A stretch of 64,000 nt of DNA, from positions 1 through 64,000 of the IMG/VR virus record IMGVR_UViG_3300047469_000103; one strand, given 5' to 3'. This document shows positions 56,300 through 63,383 of the stretch, piece by piece. The stretch comes from a virus. Lineage: Duplodnaviria; Caudoviricetes. The translations under genes and the position numbers were made by a program. Every line of letters starts with the position of its first letter. Positions within the stretch are counted from its first letter, which is position 1. Below the pieces are notes generated by a model. The model searched no databases and was not told where the DNA came from. It worked only from the letters and a program-made list of their open reading frames with translations.

Positions 56300-56929
56300 A
56301 TGCCAGTCACTAAACTACCGTCGTTTATGATTCGTGCTTTGGGTGAAAAAGATTCGAGCGTTTTGGAAGTTAAAAACGAACGTCTCTCGGCCACCGCGCC
56401 AACAGATACCGAAGTGTCTGAAGTTTCGTCGATGCTTTATGACCAAACTCAGGGCGTATTAACAATTCGGTTTTTTAATGGCAACGAAATTCGTGCGACG
56501 GGATTTCCAACCGCTGCAAAAATTCCAGCAGGCCCAACAGGCCCACAAGGTTTGGCGGGAATAGATGGAAAAAACGGAACTGATGGCGCCGCTGGTGCAA
56601 TGGGTTCTGCCGGTTGTGCAGGGCCACAAGGCGCAATTGGTCAAACAGGGCCAAAAGGTGAAACCGGTCGTACTGGTGTGCAAGGCCCAATAGGCCCAAC
56701 CGGGCCACAGGGGCCAGTCGGATTACAAGGCCCAATCGGGCCAACGGGGCCACAGGGGCCAGAAGGCCCACAAGGGCCACGCGGCGATCAAGGCCCACAA
56801 GGAAAACCGGGGCCAAAAGGGCCAGAAGGTTACATGAATATTATTGTTTCCACGACCGAACCAAAAGAAGCAGATAGAGTTGACGGTTTGTTGTGGGTAA
56901 ATCCTGCTGCCGATTATTCGTGCGCGTAA
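56300..56929 (+). CDS. Collagen-like fibre protein 2
   Basis: Gly-X-Y run; C-terminal IIVSTTEP...LLWVNP. Confidence 0.85.
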
Positions 56930-56945: not shown

Positions 56946-57470
56946 ATGGCTGGTGGTGAATTAACACGCTTGCCGGTAACGATGCTTCGCGCACGTGGCA
57001 AAACCGGTGCATCATTAAAAAACACGGGAACATCTGTTCAAGTTTCTGAAACGAACGATCAAGCATCGCCGTTTTTGAACGCCGGACATTTGGATCAATT
57101 GACTGGTATTCTTCAGCTTTCAAATAGTGACGGAACTTACATTAGTATTGACGGGTTTTTTACCGCGAATTCTATTGTGCAAGGTCAAGCGGGGCCACGT
57201 GGATTAAATGGGCAAGATGGTCGCGATGGTTCTGATGGTCGCGATGGTGAACAAGGCCCGACAGGTTGCCAAGGCCCAGCGGGGCCGCGTGGTGATACAG
57301 GGCCAGAAGGCCCACGGGGGCCACAAGGTATTCAAGGCCCAGCAGGCCCAACCGGTGCGCCGGGGCCACGAGGCGATGACGGTTTTGTACAAATCTTTAT
57401 CCAATCGGAAGACCCAAGCGCAATGGAAGGTTCTGTAGTTAAACCCGGTGCAATGTGGGTTAAACCATAA
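56946..57470 (+). CDS. Collagen-like fibre protein 3
   Basis: Gly-X-Y run; C-terminal IFIQSEDP...AMWVKP. Confidence 0.85.
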
Positions 57471-57566: not shown

Positions 57567-60500
57567 ATGAGCGATCTGGTTATTCAATCACCGGGCGGGG
57601 CGTGGTTGAACATTTGCGGAAGTGAATGGAAAGTATTACAGGACGATGGCAAATGGTACGCAATTGATCCGTTAAACGATTTGCGCGTGCGTCATGGTTC
57701 GAATGATTATTGGATGGTTATTGACTGCGACACAGGCGCAGCATATTGCCCACCAGAAGACATTGCAGAATGTTGGTCTGGACGCACAGGGAATTTTGAT
57801 TCCTCCGAATTTAAAGCCGGTGGCCCAACAGGTTATTTGGTTTGCGATTGCGATGGAAACAATTGCAAAACATATACAGGTCACGGCCCGAACTACAACA
57901 TTGAAGCAGGCCGCTTTGCAATCACTGCTCCGAAAATGGATAACAGTGTTGCCTATCCTTTGCCTGCAACTATTTTCGGACACGAAGCCGAAATAACCGA
58001 AACATTGCTTTTTGTTGGTGATCGTTCTGGTCACGTTTCTGTTTCTCTTCTGGAACTCGACACGCAGGTTCGTGTGCGTATTTACCACGGCTGCGAATTG
58101 CTCGGTGATTCGGACGAAAGCGGTACGGAATTCAACGTGTTCTTTAACGCTGAACCTCCTGAAATGACCGAACTGGATTGCGGCGTACAAAAACCAGTTA
58201 ATAACTTTCTGACAATGCGCGTTGATGCTCCTACAGGTTCGCGCTGGCGTGTAAAGGTTGGCGCTGCAAACGTAACGCAAACAACCAATTACACAAAACC
58301 TGCTCCGTGCTTCGGTACATTCGGCCCGCATTTGCCGTGCTTTATTGACGACGAACAACGGGTAATTCCGGGCGAAGCAGTTTATGAAGTTTTGCACACG
58401 CTGCCCGAACCGGGACGCGTCGATCTTGACCTAACCGTTAATGGCGCAGAGCCTGTAACCTTTTCCGTCTTTTACAATGGCGGATTAATCGCGACGACAA
58501 CCACTACAAACAGTGGCGGAAATCAACGCGTAGCAACCACGCTTTCGTTTAACTTCACCCCAGTTGGTGGCGACGATTTCATTGTGGTTCGTTATTCGGC
58601 ACCGCGTCAATTCAACAGTTGGTTTTATTCGATTTATTGCCCGAACAGAAAAGGTTCGCGCATTAATCCAATGTTCTGTACGCCGGTTCCTGATCCGGTT
58701 CCGTATGACGTGCTTTGTTTGCCACTGAATACCAGCCTCGATCCGATTTATGCAATCGTCGGGAAAGGCGCACCGGTCAACGATATGTATTACGATTATT
58801 CGGGCAAACCGCTCGGGGATATCGTGGTCGAATTCTTCGCAACGGATGCAATTCAATTCCTGTTTTATCAAGGGAATTATCCGAACGAAACTCTGTTGAG
58901 TGGCACCAGTTCTTTAGTCGGTGGTCACAATCGTTTTTACTTCCGATTTAATCCTGCACTCGGCACAACAATTCACGTGCGCACCGTTGGCCCGTGCTGC
59001 CCTGATTGGGCTTACACAATGTCTTGCCCGGTTCCGCCGCCGATTCTCGATATTTACGACGGCGAAGTAACGCGTCTGCGAAAAGGCCAAGTGAATTATC
59101 TGTGTTTCAATGTCGAACTGAGAAACAAAACGCCAAAACGCGTAACGTTTAACTGGACGACTGCACCGATTACCGCGCTGGTTTCTACAGACGGCACGTG
59201 TACGATTACCGAAAACGTTCCAGATTCTCCATATTGCAATATCACGGCAACCGGTGGTGTGCAAACTGCTGGGTATTCCAACGATACGAATATCGGCTAC
59301 CCACAAGCGCAGCGAATTAGTTCGACATTGCACAGTCCGAACTGCGCGCAAGGTGGTCAGTATTACGTTATGGAAACTGAAATTCAGCTTCCTTACGACG
59401 GCACGTATATTTTTGTAGGCACAGCGGATGACACGTTGGTGGCTTACGTTGACTGCGTGAAAGTATTCGAGAAATATTCGGATTGGGGCATTCCACAAAG
59501 CGGAAACTTTAATGCAAGAGCCGGATGGCAAACACTCAGCCTCGTTTACCAGAACGTTCCAAACTGCACACCGGGTTGGGCGAAGTTTGTTATTCTGAAT
59601 AATTCGGGCGTTGTTATTCACGCATCGAATGCTGCCGCGTATGTGTGGCGTTCTAAAGCCGGTGCAATTTCCATTGATCCGCCACCTGTGCCGCTGGTTT
59701 ACGGCGCCGATTACAATCAGGTTAGCGGTTCGGGTGTAATTGAAGCGTGTAATAAATCTACGCAAATTTGTGTTCCGATTTGCGGTACAGATTTGATGGG
59801 GCCAGACGTTACTTTCTCCGTGCAACTTTCCGAAATTGTTAACGCGGAAATCGGTGACTTGTATGCGATTGGCACAATTAAAAACTCCAACCATTACGTG
59901 TGCGATCAGAACACTAACGTTGCCGTTTACGATGCAGGTCTTGACCCGTATGTGAACCGTGACGCGCACCGCATGTACGTGAATAAATATTCAGGAAATA
60001 GCGGTGCATCTTATGTTATGGATGCGACGATTAATATTCCGGCATCTGGTTTGTACACGTTCTATTTCTTCGGGACGGACGCCGCAAACCTGTACATGGA
60101 TTGCAACCTGATTGCACAAAGCGGAAATGCTGCTGTTAAAGTTCGTGCGCCGATGAATGCTGGCCCACGGAAATTTTACATCAATTACTGGACTGCCCAA
60201 ACTGCCGGTAAGCGCGTGGGTTGTGCCGCACTGGCAATTGTCGATTCGTTAAATCGCGTTGTTTACGCAAGCCGTGCAGAACATTGGCGCGGTCGAATTG
60301 TTTCTGCGGGTTCACCTCCATTCTGCGATCAATTTCCGAAGACGTGTAACATTGCTGCACAGGCGGGCGTAGGTAACTATCCTCCGCATAACGATGGGCG
60401 CGTGGGTTACGGTTCGATTTCCATGTATTCGTCGTTGCACGCACCAGCATGCGCGCCGGGAAATACGTTCTTCACACTTGAACGCAAACTGACTTTCCCT

Positions 60501-61166
60501 GTTTCTGGAACGTACACATTCCGAGGAATTGCGGACGACACGTTGGATATTTACATCGACTGTAATCACGTTTTTTCCAGTATCTTGCAACAAGGCCCGG
60601 TAAACGGTGCAGTGAATGTGAGCGCAGGAGAACACACGGTAACTGTCGTTTATAAAAACGTGCCGAATTGTACGCCGGGTTATGTGCAGTTCGCATTCAT
60701 TAAACCTGACGGAAATGTTTTCTACGCGTCGAATCCTGACGGGTGGATTTCTGCGGCTGGCAGTTTGAGTAATCAACCGGTTGCTCTGTACGAGACGTGG
60801 TACAACGGTCAATTGTGTTTGCACATTTCGCCTTCGATTGGCAGTGGCGGCCCCAACTACAATTGGTGGTCTGCTGAAATGGATTGGGGCGTGCCAAGCG
60901 ACGGTGTGTATTACGTTGTAGGCGGCGCGGACGACCAGTTAGGTTTGTACATCGGGTGCGAAAGTAAACCAATTAATGGTACGCCTTTTTATCTCGATGG
61001 CGGCATGACTAAAATGCACATCCGCTGCTATAACCTTAAATCGAAAAACCCAAACTATTGCTATTTCAGTATTTACAACGCAACTACCGGCGCGTTGGTG
61101 TACCACTCTAACCGCGTTGACTGGCGAGCAAAATGGGCTGACCTCGACTTCTCAGGACTGGCATAA
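57567..61166 (+). CDS. Large adhesin-like fibre protein with Calx-beta and four PA14-like domains
   Basis: Four GxYxFxxxADDxxxxYxxC-type repeats; split Calx-beta (ILDIYD...FNWTT / GADY..VSG...TFSVQLS). Confidence 0.75.
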   Translation: MSDLVIQSPGGAWLNICGSEWKVLQDDGKWYAIDPLNDLRVRHGSNDYWMVIDCDTGAAYCPPEDIAECWSGRTGNFDSSEFKAGGPTGYLVCDCDGNNCKTYTGHGPNYNIEAGRFAITAPKMDNSVAYPLPATIFGHEAEITETLLFVGDRSGHVSVSLLELDTQVRVRIYHGCELLGDSDESGTEFNVFFNAEPPEMTELDCGVQKPVNNFLTMRVDAPTGSRWRVKVGAANVTQTTNYTKPAPCFGTFGPHLPCFIDDEQRVIPGEAVYEVLHTLPEPGRVDLDLTVNGAEPVTFSVFYNGGLIATTTTTNSGGNQRVATTLSFNFTPVGGDDFIVVRYSAPRQFNSWFYSIYCPNRKGSRINPMFCTPVPDPVPYDVLCLPLNTSLDPIYAIVGKGAPVNDMYYDYSGKPLGDIVVEFFATDAIQFLFYQGNYPNETLLSGTSSLVGGHNRFYFRFNPALGTTIHVRTVGPCCPDWAYTMSCPVPPPILDIYDGEVTRLRKGQVNYLCFNVELRNKTPKRVTFNWTTAPITALVSTDGTCTITENVPDSPYCNITATGGVQTAGYSNDTNIGYPQAQRISSTLHSPNCAQGGQYYVMETEIQLPYDGTYIFVGTADDTLVAYVDCVKVFEKYSDWGIPQSGNFNARAGWQTLSLVYQNVPNCTPGWAKFVILNNSGVVIHASNAAAYVWRSKAGAISIDPPPVPLVYGADYNQVSGSGVIEACNKSTQICVPICGTDLMGPDVTFSVQLSEIVNAEIGDLYAIGTIKNSNHYVCDQNTNVAVYDAGLDPYVNRDAHRMYVNKYSGNSGASYVMDATINIPASGLYTFYFFGTDAANLYMDCNLIAQSGNAAVKVRAPMNAGPRKFYINYWTAQTAGKRVGCAALAIVDSLNRVVYASRAEHWRGRIVSAGSPPFCDQFPKTCNIAAQAGVGNYPPHNDGRVGYGSISMYSSLHAPACAPGNTFFTLERKLTFPVSGTYTFRGIADDTLDIYIDCNHVFSSILQQGPVNGAVNVSAGEHTVTVVYKNVPNCTPGYVQFAFIKPDGNVFYASNPDGWISAAGSLSNQPVALYETWYNGQLCLHISPSIGSGGPNYNWWSAEMDWGVPSDGVYYVVGGADDQLGLYIGCESKPINGTPFYLDGGMTKMHIRCYNLKSKNPNYCYFSIYNATTGALVYHSNRVDWRAKWADLDFSGLA

Positions 61167-61169
61167 ACT

Positions 61170-61334
61170 ATGTCGCGAAAACTTTATGTTCGCGCCTCTT
61201 CCACTTCGCCCTTTATCGTGAATTTCGATAAGGGCGGGTGGACTGTTTATAAAAACGGACAGGCGATTAAAATGCTCCCATCCAACACGAAAATGTGGGA
61301 TGCGGATAAAAAAGAATGGGTATTTGTTAAGTAG
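61170..61334 (+). CDS. Small protein (54 aa, not in ORF track)
   Basis: MSRKLYVRAS...KKEWVFVK fills the gap between two fibre genes. Confidence 0.6.
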   Translation: MSRKLYVRASSTSPFIVNFDKGGWTVYKNGQAIKMLPSNTKMWDADKKEWVFVK

Positions 61335-61343
61335 GTAATTCTT

Positions 61344-63383
61344 ATGGCTGGCACGCTGACAAGACTTCCCGCTTCGATGCTCTCCACGCGCAATTCTACA
61401 ACCGGCGATGTGTTGAAAAACACTGGCGATCAATTCGCACCGAGTTCGGATGATGTTGCACCGTCGAGTGGCGTAAAAGAAGCGCTTTTTGATAAAGAAA
61501 CTGGCACGCTGACAATTACAAACGTGGATGACACGACGATTATTGTTAACGGTTTACCGACTGCAAATAATATCGGTGTTGGTGCGACTGGCCCAACTGG
61601 CCCGCAAGGAAATACCGGTACAAATGGTCGAAACGGAAAAGATGGTAGAAATGGTGTTCAAGGTTGTATCGGCCCAAAAGGTGACGTTGGCCCTGCTGGC
61701 CCTGCTGGTGGTTATGGTGGTATTGGCCCCCGTGGCCCGGTAGGCCCAACTGGCCCGCAAGGCTCACAAGGTTTGCCCGGTGAAAAAGGCGATATTGGCC
61801 CAACCGGCCCACAAGGAAATCCCGGCCCTTCTGGTGGTGTTGGTTCTGGTGGTGCAACTGGCCCGCAAGGCCCAATCGGATTAACTGGCGCAACTGGCCC
61901 GCAAGGTGAAAAAGGCGAAATTGGCCCGCAAGGAATTGTCGGCCCAACAGGCCCGCAAGGCGGTAGCGGTTCCGATGGTTTGCAAGGCCCGGCTGGCCCC
62001 GCTGGCCCAATGGGTGTAGGTGTTCCCGGCCCCGCTGGTGTTTCTTCACTTTTCGTAAATGATTCGTGGACAAATACTGACAACCGCGTCGGTCGTTATC
62101 ACACGTTGGAAGCAGATGATAAATCTGTTGAAATTGTCGGTCGTTTTAAATCTTCGACTGCCGTACAAAACGTGACGATTACGCTGGAATATAACGGTGC
62201 TGCTGCGCGCCGTGTTGTGCCGATGATTAGTTTCAACACTTTCGGTTCTGCACTGATTGCCGGTGCGTCTTATACAATCACGGCAAACCCAACTGTAGAC
62301 GGCGATACAACTTGCTCGTTTACGTTTGCAGCAAGTCAGCCTTTTGCATCGCTTGATTTTAACTTCTGCGTGAAATTGGCAACGACTTCGCCAACGCCTG
62401 ACATGTCGATTTTCGATACGGCTCTGGATATTCCGCGTCCGGGTGCGGCTTACACTGCAACCCTGAATTTCCCTGTGCATTTGTCGATTGATTCCGAAGA
62501 AAACATTTTGGTCGATTGGGAAACTGTTTCGGATAACGCAATCGGTTCCGGTATTCCAGTTCCGACAACGCTGCCTCTTTTCCAAAGTTGGTATCGCACA
62601 GCAGGCCCGGATTATTTCACGCCTTCTGACGCAGTGCCACCGGGTAACGAAGCTGCCACGTTGGTATTCGATAACAGCCGAATTGAAGTCACGCTGAATA
62701 GTTCGAATTATATTCAGATGCTTTCGCCAATCGGCTTCCTGAAATACACATTGCAATGCCGTGTAGGTTCAGCAAACTCGGATGACGATCAAATCGGTTT
62801 GGTGGTTGCGTCCGTTCGTCAAGATGGGATTAACCATTCCATTTATGCCGTGCGAAATCAAGGCGGTGCTGGTGGTGTCGATGTTGCCACGCGTAAAAAC
62901 TTCATGATTACTTACGTGCGAAATAACACAGTAGTCAAGAATTTGGGCGCGGTGGACATTGGCGCATCTGTAAATACATGGGGCGGTAAAACGTCCGTGA
63001 TGAAAGTTGTGCGTGACGCAGATTCGATTCAATGTTTCGCATCTGATTTCAACTCGCCAACTTTGAACGCCACACCGTTAACCGTTAACTTGGCCTCCGA
63101 TCCTGATTTGGCAGTCTTCCGTGACTCGTGCAAATTCGGTTTCTTCGCACAATCCCAAGCTGGTTCTTATTGGGAAAATATCACGTTTGATTTTGGCGTG
63201 GCTGATTACATTTCTGCATCGGGCACATTGGAAATTCCAGCGGGCACAACTGATATCACAATTCCGGTTGTGATTAAAGGAACTGACGTTGCGAATCCGC
63301 CAGCAAAGACTGTGAGCGTGCGTTTGTCGAATCCACGGAATGCCAAACTCGGCGCTGTTGCTGTCGGAGTCGGGACGTTCTGA
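61344..63383 (+). CDS. Collagen-like fibre protein 4 with Calx-beta and lectin-like insert
   Basis: Long Gly-X-Y run, split Calx-beta, SDDDQIGLV motif. Confidence 0.85.
   Translation: MAGTLTRLPASMLSTRNSTTGDVLKNTGDQFAPSSDDVAPSSGVKEALFDKETGTLTITNVDDTTIIVNGLPTANNIGVGATGPTGPQGNTGTNGRNGKDGRNGVQGCIGPKGDVGPAGPAGGYGGIGPRGPVGPTGPQGSQGLPGEKGDIGPTGPQGNPGPSGGVGSGGATGPQGPIGLTGATGPQGEKGEIGPQGIVGPTGPQGGSGSDGLQGPAGPAGPMGVGVPGPAGVSSLFVNDSWTNTDNRVGRYHTLEADDKSVEIVGRFKSSTAVQNVTITLEYNGAAARRVVPMISFNTFGSALIAGASYTITANPTVDGDTTCSFTFAASQPFASLDFNFCVKLATTSPTPDMSIFDTALDIPRPGAAYTATLNFPVHLSIDSEENILVDWETVSDNAIGSGIPVPTTLPLFQSWYRTAGPDYFTPSDAVPPGNEAATLVFDNSRIEVTLNSSNYIQMLSPIGFLKYTLQCRVGSANSDDDQIGLVVASVRQDGINHSIYAVRNQGGAGGVDVATRKNFMITYVRNNTVVKNLGAVDIGASVNTWGGKTSVMKVVRDADSIQCFASDFNSPTLNATPLTVNLASDPDLAVFRDSCKFGFFAQSQAGSYWENITFDFGVADYISASGTLEIPAGTTDITIPVVIKGTDVANPPAKTVSVRLSNPRNAKLGAVAVGVGTF

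Follow-up and report, generated by a model that had tools for sequence, protein, structure and literature searches.

Calx-beta domains split at the same loop by different nested domains in two neighbouring putative tail-fibre proteins of a Lu11-like jumbo phage

The stretch of viral DNA analysed here is the first 64,000 nucleotides (nt) of IMG/VR record IMGVR_UViG_3300047469_000103 (the window), and its source is a Lu11-like Pseudomonas jumbo phage. Two adjacent genes, P0001 and P0002, each encode a Calx-beta domain that is interrupted by a second domain. The interruption falls at the identical point in both proteins, the loop between Calx-beta strands C and D, and the interrupting domain (the passenger) differs, being PA14-like in P0001 and predicted to be lectin-like in P0002. 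We consider it probable that the split Calx-beta domains are sockets, that their passengers are host-binding heads, and that these passengers have been exchanged rarely and long ago. The coordinates of all features are collected in Table 1.

The fold of the two sockets was assessed on structural models. Orthologues of the C-terminal part of P0002 (22 sequences) and of the middle of P0001 (27 sequences) were gathered and aligned, and both regions were folded with AlphaFold2. The model of P0002 residues 345-679, made with 23 homologues, has a predicted local distance difference test (pLDDT) score of 89.8 and a predicted template modelling (pTM) score of 0.87. The model of P0001 residues 480-800, made with 28 homologues, has a pLDDT of 83.5 and a pTM of 0.50. 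An exhaustive VIA-align search with each model recovered CBD1 of NCX1 (3gin_A) across the interruption. The flanks of P0001 align with it at Z 15.6 and a root-mean-square deviation (rmsd) of 1.8 A over 110 of 116 residues (model range 11 to 297), and those of P0002 at Z 14.6 and 1.7 A over 106 of 116 residues with 24% identity (model range 6 to 335). The P0002 flanks also match CALX CBD1 (3ead, Z 14.0) and integrin beta4 (3fq4, Z 13.9). For the two models together, the Calx-beta structures 3ead, 3fq4, 3us9 and 2lt9 score Z 12.9-15.0. The best Calx-beta matches across the interruption, 3gin included, lie at Z 13-15.6 (rmsd 1.7-2.0 A, 103-111 residues), and other immunoglobulin (Ig)-like folds reach Z 10 at most against the P0001 flanks. 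The P0002 model yields two independent sets of matches, one lectin-like over residues ~51-274 and one to Calx-beta over 6 to 335 with ~105 residues aligned. Because the Calx-beta matches span 6 to 335, the P0002 flanks, although 215 residues apart, are predicted to close into one complete sandwich. In both proteins, then, the models have the flanks folding into a single Calx-beta sandwich. A first-pass annotation, made from the letters and the open reading frames (ORFs), had described ORF 57567 as a Calx-beta split by a PA14-like insert and ORF 61344 as a Calx-beta split by a different insert holding SDDDQIGLV. Domain parsing of the AlphaFold models bears out both descriptions, and the coordinates given were right to within about 10 nt.

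The same annotation placed both inserts at the equivalent loop, and this too holds. When the inserts are removed and the flanks concatenated, the two alignments match each other in hhalign with a probability of 97.5% and an expectation value (E) of 5.7e-12 over 110 columns, with the junctions in register. Hidden Markov models (HMMs) of both concatenated flanks match contiguous, Pfam-verified Calx-beta repeats end to end in 15 of 15 cases (E 9e-6 to 4e-20); these uninterrupted repeats come from three unrelated proteins. Since the flank HMMs run unbroken through contiguous repeats, the junction lies between '...T-x-D-x-S-A', the end of strand C, and 'x-G-D-Y'. It reads ..ETVSDNAIGS / insert / ..FGVADY.. 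in P0002 and ..WTTAPITALV / insert / ..VYGADY.. in P0001. DSSP assigns three strands ahead of the insert and four behind it in both models. The insertion point is identical in both proteins, the Calx-beta C-D loop, and the equivalence is far beyond chance.

Neither socket is visible to Pfam. The PF03160 gathering score of 27 bits is not reached by native P0001 or P0002, and the whole proteins have no match to this family at all. Among isolated parts, the C-half of P0002 scores 14.1 bits and P0001 gives nothing; the orthologue P0020 reaches 25.6 bits. Pfam is blind to these domains because the split leaves only profile positions ~51-119 contiguous. The P0002 family profile does match NCX1 CBD1 by sequence (E 1e-5), and the C-half HMM of the P0002 family detects the P0001 C-half (independent E value, iE, 1.2e-6). 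An HMM search of the window found no further Calx-beta half. Foldseek results for the two-domain models were dominated by the larger passenger, with poor multi-domain superpositions in the case of P0001 (rmsd >20 A), and it was the exhaustive VIA-align search that revealed the socket. In the ESM Atlas, a shape search with the P0002 model aligned three clusters, two bacterial and one viral, over model residues 14-330; these clusters may share its nested layout. The corresponding search with the P0001 model returned only contiguous Calx-beta proteins.

The passenger of P0002 is modelled as a concanavalin-A-like jelly-roll, best matched by the thrombospondin C-terminal domain. VIA-align scores thrombospondin-1 (2rhp) at Z 17.1 over 186 aligned residues, CBM66 (4b1m) at Z 16.9 and 1ux6 at Z 16.7; legume lectins, ERGIC-53 and VIP36 follow at Z 12-13.5. 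Legume lectins and COMP are also among the Foldseek matches of the P0002 model. The first-pass annotation had likened the SDDDQIGLV insert to the thrombospondin C-terminal L-lectin, and at the level of the fold the comparison is apt. Profile searches against Pfam and PDB sequences gave only chance matches, so the likeness stays at that level. For 23 of 23 members of the lectin family, no relevant Pfam family (TSP_C, Lectin_legB or similar) appears at E up to 10, and the family profile finds only chance matches to fatty-acid-binding proteins among PDB sequences, at E 0.35 or worse. Within the family the motif is strongly conserved: D480 and D482 are invariant among 23 orthologues, and D481 is present in at least 90%. 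The L-lectin of thrombospondin-1 has, at its outer tip, a double Ca2+ site made by the motif D1001DD (PMC4501361).

The passenger of P0001 has, in its model, a PA14-type beta-sandwich fold with a conserved D-D motif. Its closest match over model residues ~83-220 is the tail tip of phage Chi (8vjh_B, Z 15.3, 125 aligned, rmsd 1.8). It is followed by a rhamnosidase carbohydrate-binding module (3w5n, Z 12.7), a mushroom lectin (6kbj, Z 12.5) and the PA14 lectin domains 6x95 and 6m8m (both Z 8.0). The motif A620-D621-D622 is invariant in the 28 sequences of the family alignment. By Pfam, whole P0001 clears the PA14 gathering cut-off of 24 bits with 43.6 bits, spread over 3 stretches; taken by itself, the nested domain gets a weak 16.2 bits. 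An HMM of the nested domain finds three further PA14-like modules behind the socket, at iE 7.8e-10 (residues 811-911), 4.9e-41 (926-1072) and 8.4e-8 (1099-1190), which makes four in all. The nested domain is 43% identical to the third module by BLASTP and can therefore be regarded as an old internal paralogue. This third module (60342-60782) is the most variable part of P0001, with 41% mean pairwise identity against 53-64% elsewhere, and it resembles the nested domain far more here than the corresponding Lu11 module does (HMM iE 8.5e-18). Module replacement or gene conversion may have occurred at this place.

Table 1. Coordinates of the two genes and their parts (window positions; residues refer to the encoded protein)
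Feature	Position	Strand	Size or residues	Remarks
P0001 (ORF)	57567-61166	+	1199 aa	Lu11 gp242 orthologue
Calx-beta N-half of P0001	59034-59183	+	490-539	strands A-C, model residues 14-55; ends ..WTTAPITALV
Nested PA14-like passenger of P0001	59184-59690	+	540-708	VIA-align and HMM
Calx-beta C-half of P0001	59691-59894	+	709-776	strands D-G; starts ..VYGADYNQVSGSG
Further PA14-like modules of P0001	59997-61136	+	811-911, 926-1072, 1099-1190	HMM of nested PA14
P0002 (ORF)	61344-63383	+	679 aa	orthologue of Lu11 gp243 'tail fiber protein'
Collagen-like Gly-X-Y repeats of P0002	61578-62048	+	about 79-235	Pfam PF01391; DNA repeat families D1-D2
Calx-beta N-half of P0002	62391-62546	+	350-401	strands at model residues 9-51; ends ..VDWETVSDNAIGS
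Nested concanavalin-A-like lectin of P0002 (predicted)	62547-63191	+	402-616	VIA-align, Foldseek
DDD motif of P0002 passenger	62781-62789	+	480-482	within SDDDQIGLV, residues 479-487
Calx-beta C-half of P0002	63192-63380	+	617-679	FGVADYISASGTLEI...; closes the protein

Across the Lu11/PaBG group, homologous sockets hold different passengers, with three or four different contents on the evidence of sequence comparison. P0056 and P0057 are distant orthologues of P0001, collinear with it from the first to the last residues, and an unrelated insert of 227-231 amino acids (aa) separates their flanks (478-526 and 754-814) at the very position of the HMM where P0001 is interrupted. An exhaustive search with the Calx-beta[alpha/beta] unit of this type found many proteins with the same split. 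The insert at this position measures 229-240 aa in P0068, P0154 and P0194 and ~450 aa in P0071, P0079 and P0084. HMM maps place the alpha/beta passenger alone in the sockets of P0068 and P0194, and likewise, with a weaker N-half, in those of P0091, P0201 and others. P0154 maps as a collagen-like fibre that ends in a Calx-beta with an alpha/beta insert, a layout like that of P0002 except for the passenger. In P0071, P0079 and P0084, the maps indicate a double nest in the order CalxN, alpha/beta (1-40), lectin, alpha/beta (45-226), CalxC and PA14, the Calx-beta N-half being below threshold in P0079 and P0084. The lectin of these double nests belongs to the family of the P0002 insert (35% identity, E 7e-43), and its copy in P0071 includes the DDD motif. 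The map of gp238 of the isolated phage PaBG (L006:2429-6082) likewise suggests a lectin inside a ThuA/GIFT-like alpha/beta domain inside a Calx-beta, followed by a PA14-like module. The collagen fibre that neighbours gp238 (gp236, 268 aa) has no socket. P0071, P0084, P0108 and P0139 are homologous to P0001, because the N-terminal region is common to all of them; homologues of P0001 have the socket at the same place with different contents.

By its database matches, the alpha/beta passenger is ThuA/GIFT-like and falls in the class I glutamine-amidotransferase-like kind. Pfam ThuA is matched by 10 of 18 members (best E 4.6e-7) and PDB 2gk3 at E 2e-4, and other members match OST48_N and IFT52_GIFT. 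Feature searches of the Atlas with this passenger returned weak leads, and the ThuA/GIFT assignment is based on the Pfam and PDB matches. The domain belongs to phrog_11065, annotated 'virion structural protein', and many phiKZ-like phages encode it with no socket around it. The P0002-family lectin is similarly found outside any detected socket in P0104, P0108 and P0139. A word-based search with the lectin family returned only orthologous fibres of 670-687 aa; the exhaustive search placed the lectin elsewhere too. The Calx-beta[alpha/beta] unit is also matched over most of its length (query residues 29-344) by further virion proteins, in phage HRDY3 (PQ015379.1, 4318-5346) and in the Dickeya phages JA11, JA13, JA29 and JA33, around 58.7-60.1 kb. 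The first match implies three or more sockets in the genome of a close relative, including one at another locus; the others imply that the socket design extends to Dickeya jumbo phages.

How such a protein might be built follows from the topology. The chain would form strands A-C, leave the sandwich at the C-D loop, past T-x-D-G-S-A and ahead of G-x-D-Y, fold the whole passenger and re-enter to complete strands D-G. The C-D loop of NCX1 CBD1 would lie at the end of the sandwich that binds Ca2+, to which the D of the D-Y motif also contributes. By strand topology the C-D loop lies opposite the N-terminus of the sandwich, so the passenger would be held out at the far end. The lectin of P0002 would then form the distal tip of a collagen-like trimeric fibre and point away from the shaft. 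The passengers are rather likely to be recognition heads for the host surface, directed at polysaccharide or lipopolysaccharide (LPS), and binding could be assisted by Ca2+ through the invariant DD and DDD motifs. The socket itself would serve as a recurrent site of domain exchange, reached by ordinary illegitimate or homologous recombination and with no dedicated switching system.

The first-pass annotation went further and suggested a cassette mechanism that diversifies glycan binding. An active system of this kind, whether an invertase shufflon, a diversity-generating retroelement or something similar, would swap or rewrite the inserts within a population, and all that speaks for it is that different passengers occupy the same site. 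Within the Lu11-like clade, the same insert is present throughout, in 23-30 orthologue clusters of P0002, without exception among the orthologues found, and in 28 close clusters of P0001. These clusters, 41-85% identical, show flanks and insert diverging together: the mean pairwise identities, flanks and insert alike, are 47, 56 and 51% for P0002 and 58, 58 and 60% for P0001 (23-28 clusters compared). The inserts are thus shown to be inherited vertically within this clade. Neither insert border has direct or inverted DNA repeats, and the two inserts are unrelated folds, beyond the reach of mutagenic retrohoming. An active cassette mechanism is essentially excluded, and we give a population-level switch hardly any credence. 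What survives of the swappable cassette is its slow form: comparison of the inserts across related phages, which the annotation had called for, finds different contents in distant homologues and a constant one in the Lu11-like clade, with no sign of active or rapid exchange.

Two other functions can be proposed for the passengers. The P0002 passenger could be an enzyme of the PL7, GH16 or 3-keto-glycoside-hydratase type that degrades alginate or another exopolysaccharide at the fibre tip. PL7 alginate lyases (Pseudomonas PA1167, Z 11.6) and GH16 enzymes are indeed among the Foldseek and VIA-align matches, and the family has invariant polar residues, such as R492, N497, H498, R504, N505, Y524, K532 and Q605. 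However, non-catalytic lectin domains score clearly higher (Z 16.7-17.1 against 11.6-12.0), neither sequence nor Pfam searches tie the passenger to any lyase or hydrolase family, and the PL7 signature motifs are not evident by eye, so an enzymatic role is improbable. A better case, though still an unlikely one, can be made for passengers that are structural or assembly modules, mediating protein-protein contacts between fibre subunits or between fibre and baseplate, rather than receptor-binding lectins. The DDD site of the thrombospondin L-lectin mediates contacts between thrombospondins, and glycan binding was looked for and not found (PMC4501361), the inserts vary no more than the other parts of the proteins do, although receptor-binding tips usually vary more, and the four PA14-like modules of P0001 could simply form a large baseplate wedge. 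Against this, most of the nearest folds bind carbohydrates (CBM66, legume lectins, rhamnosidase modules and PA14 lectins), the P0002 passenger stands at the C-terminal end of a collagen-like fibre, and the domains that RTX adhesins project by this design are proven ligand binders.

Several points weigh against sockets that carry host-binding heads. Receptor binding, the role of Ca2+ and the location in the virion are properties that we infer. The P0002 passenger is a predicted lectin with no detectable sequence link, in Pfam or among PDB sequences, to any lectin family. When 406 glycans were offered on an array, the thrombospondin C-terminal domain that it resembles bound none of them, and its role lies in contacts between proteins (PMC4501361). 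Read by eye, the E-F loops of the two sockets (..KGTDVANPPAK.. and ..CGTDLMGPDV..) appear to lack the canonical acidic Ca2+ cluster, DDDxxEED, that NCX1 has there. The pTM of only 0.50 makes the orientation of the PA14-like domain relative to its socket uncertain. The alpha/beta and doubly nested architectures are drawn from HMM domain maps. Finally, since no swap is seen within the Lu11-like clade, passenger exchange must be rare and old.

The setting of the two genes is that of a tail-fibre cluster. The source phage is related to Pseudomonas phages Lu11 and HRDY3, with ~66-67% nucleotide identity across both genes. Lu11 and HRDY3 keep the order of the two genes, which belong there to a cluster labelled as tail fibres; the tail sheath gene lies a few genes downstream. 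P0001 is 59% identical to Lu11 gp242 and 57% to its HRDY3 homologue; for P0002, the values are 55% (Lu11 gp243) and 58% (HRDY3). It is probable that both are virion proteins of the tail fibre or the baseplate. P0001 consists of an N-terminal region, the Calx-beta with its nested PA14-like domain and the three further PA14-like modules; Pfam sees only PA14 in it (E 3.3e-11). P0002 runs from an N-terminal part through collagen-like repeats and a neck to the C-terminal Calx-beta with its nested lectin-like domain. Here Pfam sees only collagen repeats (Collagen PF01391, E 1.3e-16), and PHROGs assigns tail-fibre families (phrog_8745 tail fiber, E 1.8e-63). The collagen-like part is the best conserved region of P0002 among orthologues (73% mean pairwise identity) and presumably forms a trimeric shaft. 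Pfam has no match in P0002 residues 236-349 (62049-62390) or P0001 residues 1-489 (57567-59033).

Some observations concern the surroundings of these genes. Residues 243-372 of P0001 match phrog_26008, a family of unassigned function that also spans residues 195-683 of P0071. Two short collagen-like genes lie directly upstream of P0001, at 56300-56929 (209 aa) and 56946-57470 (174 aa), and the homologue P0071 has a comparable short collagen gene in front of it on its contig (L005:99-599). The short upstream proteins could be fibres anchored on the gp242-like protein. In HRDY3, the P0002 orthologue bears the name 'N-acetylmuramoyl-L-alanine amidase' (L002:9648-11681 and L002:4332-5342). This label is probably an annotation error, because P0002, 58% identical, shows only collagen repeats by Pfam and the Calx-beta with its lectin-like insert.

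Recognition of the split socket explains why large jumbo-phage proteins have been left 'hypothetical' or misnamed, as Pfam cannot see a bisected Calx-beta. It also provides a signature for finding more of them: a lone Calx-beta match at profile positions ~51-119 directly after an unrelated domain. In addition, it points to the likely receptor-binding heads of Lu11/PaBG-type Pseudomonas phages, P0001 residues 480-800 and P0002 residues 345-679. If the passengers set host specificity, the socket is a defined junction for engineering the specificity of fibres. A bolder proposal, which we hold only tentatively, is that the G-x-A / G-x-DY loop serves the adhesion proteins of jumbo phages generally as an evolvable socket. 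Whole binding domains would be accepted there, with up to three nesting levels, and exchange of passengers, between gp242-like protein and collagen fibre and between phage genera, would be a main route by which receptor specificity changes. If so, the socket would amount to a portable display scaffold, of natural origin, with which phage fibres could be retargeted.

Among known Calx-beta domains, those of the Na+/Ca2+ exchanger and integrin beta4 (PF03160; 3gin, 3ead, 3us9, 3fq4) share with the phage sockets the seven-strand sandwich (Z 13-15.6) and the motifs around D-Y and the G-T-x-x-F-x-P-G strand. The known domains are contiguous, and CBD1 binds Ca2+ by acidic residues of its A-B and E-F loops, whereas the phage domains are interrupted by 169-215 residues. 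The P0002 passenger resembles the thrombospondin C-terminal L-lectin (1ux6, 2rhp) in having a D-D-D-x-x-G-x-V-like motif, invariant in its own family, but the two are only 12% identical and have no profile-level relationship. Among phages, PaBG gp238 (putative tail fiber protein, YP_009829455.1), together with the metagenomic relatives P0071 and P0084, is homologous to P0001 and agrees with it in the N-terminal region, the position of the socket, a PA14-like module at the C-terminus and a syntenic location following a short collagen gene. The PaBG socket seems to hold the lectin within an alpha/beta domain, whereas here the socket of P0001 holds a PA14-like domain and the predicted lectin occupies that of the collagen fibre next to it. 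Insertion of carbohydrate-binding modules into loops of a beta-sandwich host domain is also a feature of siphophage baseplate proteins ('evolved' Dit and related). Unlike the sockets described here, Dit has a galectin-like host domain, belongs to Gram-positive siphophages and has no Calx-beta socket.

The closest parallel is found in the RTX adhesins, in which split Ig-like domains project ligand-binding domains, including PA14-type modules, off the fibre axis; such units occur in MpIBP, Vibrio cholerae FrhA and Aeromonas hydrophila AhLap (PMC12077191, PMC10865825). In both systems, a discontinuous beta-sandwich lets a complete domain bud out with adjacent N- and C-termini and its binding face outward, and the models and alignments of the phage proteins have both the discontinuous host sandwich and passenger termini that emerge together. 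Both also have nests within nests; in the adhesins, an RTX roll encloses a vWFA domain that itself carries an insert. The two differ in the host domain and in the site of the cut, since the BIg-like domain of the adhesins is cut after the first strand (~12 residues) and the phage Calx-beta after the third. RTX adhesins are type-1-secreted fibres of bacteria, and the phage proteins are, in all probability, virion proteins whose passengers, unlike those of the adhesins, include a thrombospondin-C-like lectin and a ThuA/GIFT-like alpha/beta domain. Literature searches on Calx-beta with PA14, domain insertion or tail fibres, including the PaBG paper, found no description of this phage architecture. 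The split-domain design is already published for RTX adhesins, and the phage version of it uses another host domain with a fixed insertion point. To this the present analysis adds the demonstration that the insertion point is identical, two differently filled sockets side by side in one phage, their varied contents across the Lu11/PaBG group and a signature by which such sockets can be searched for.

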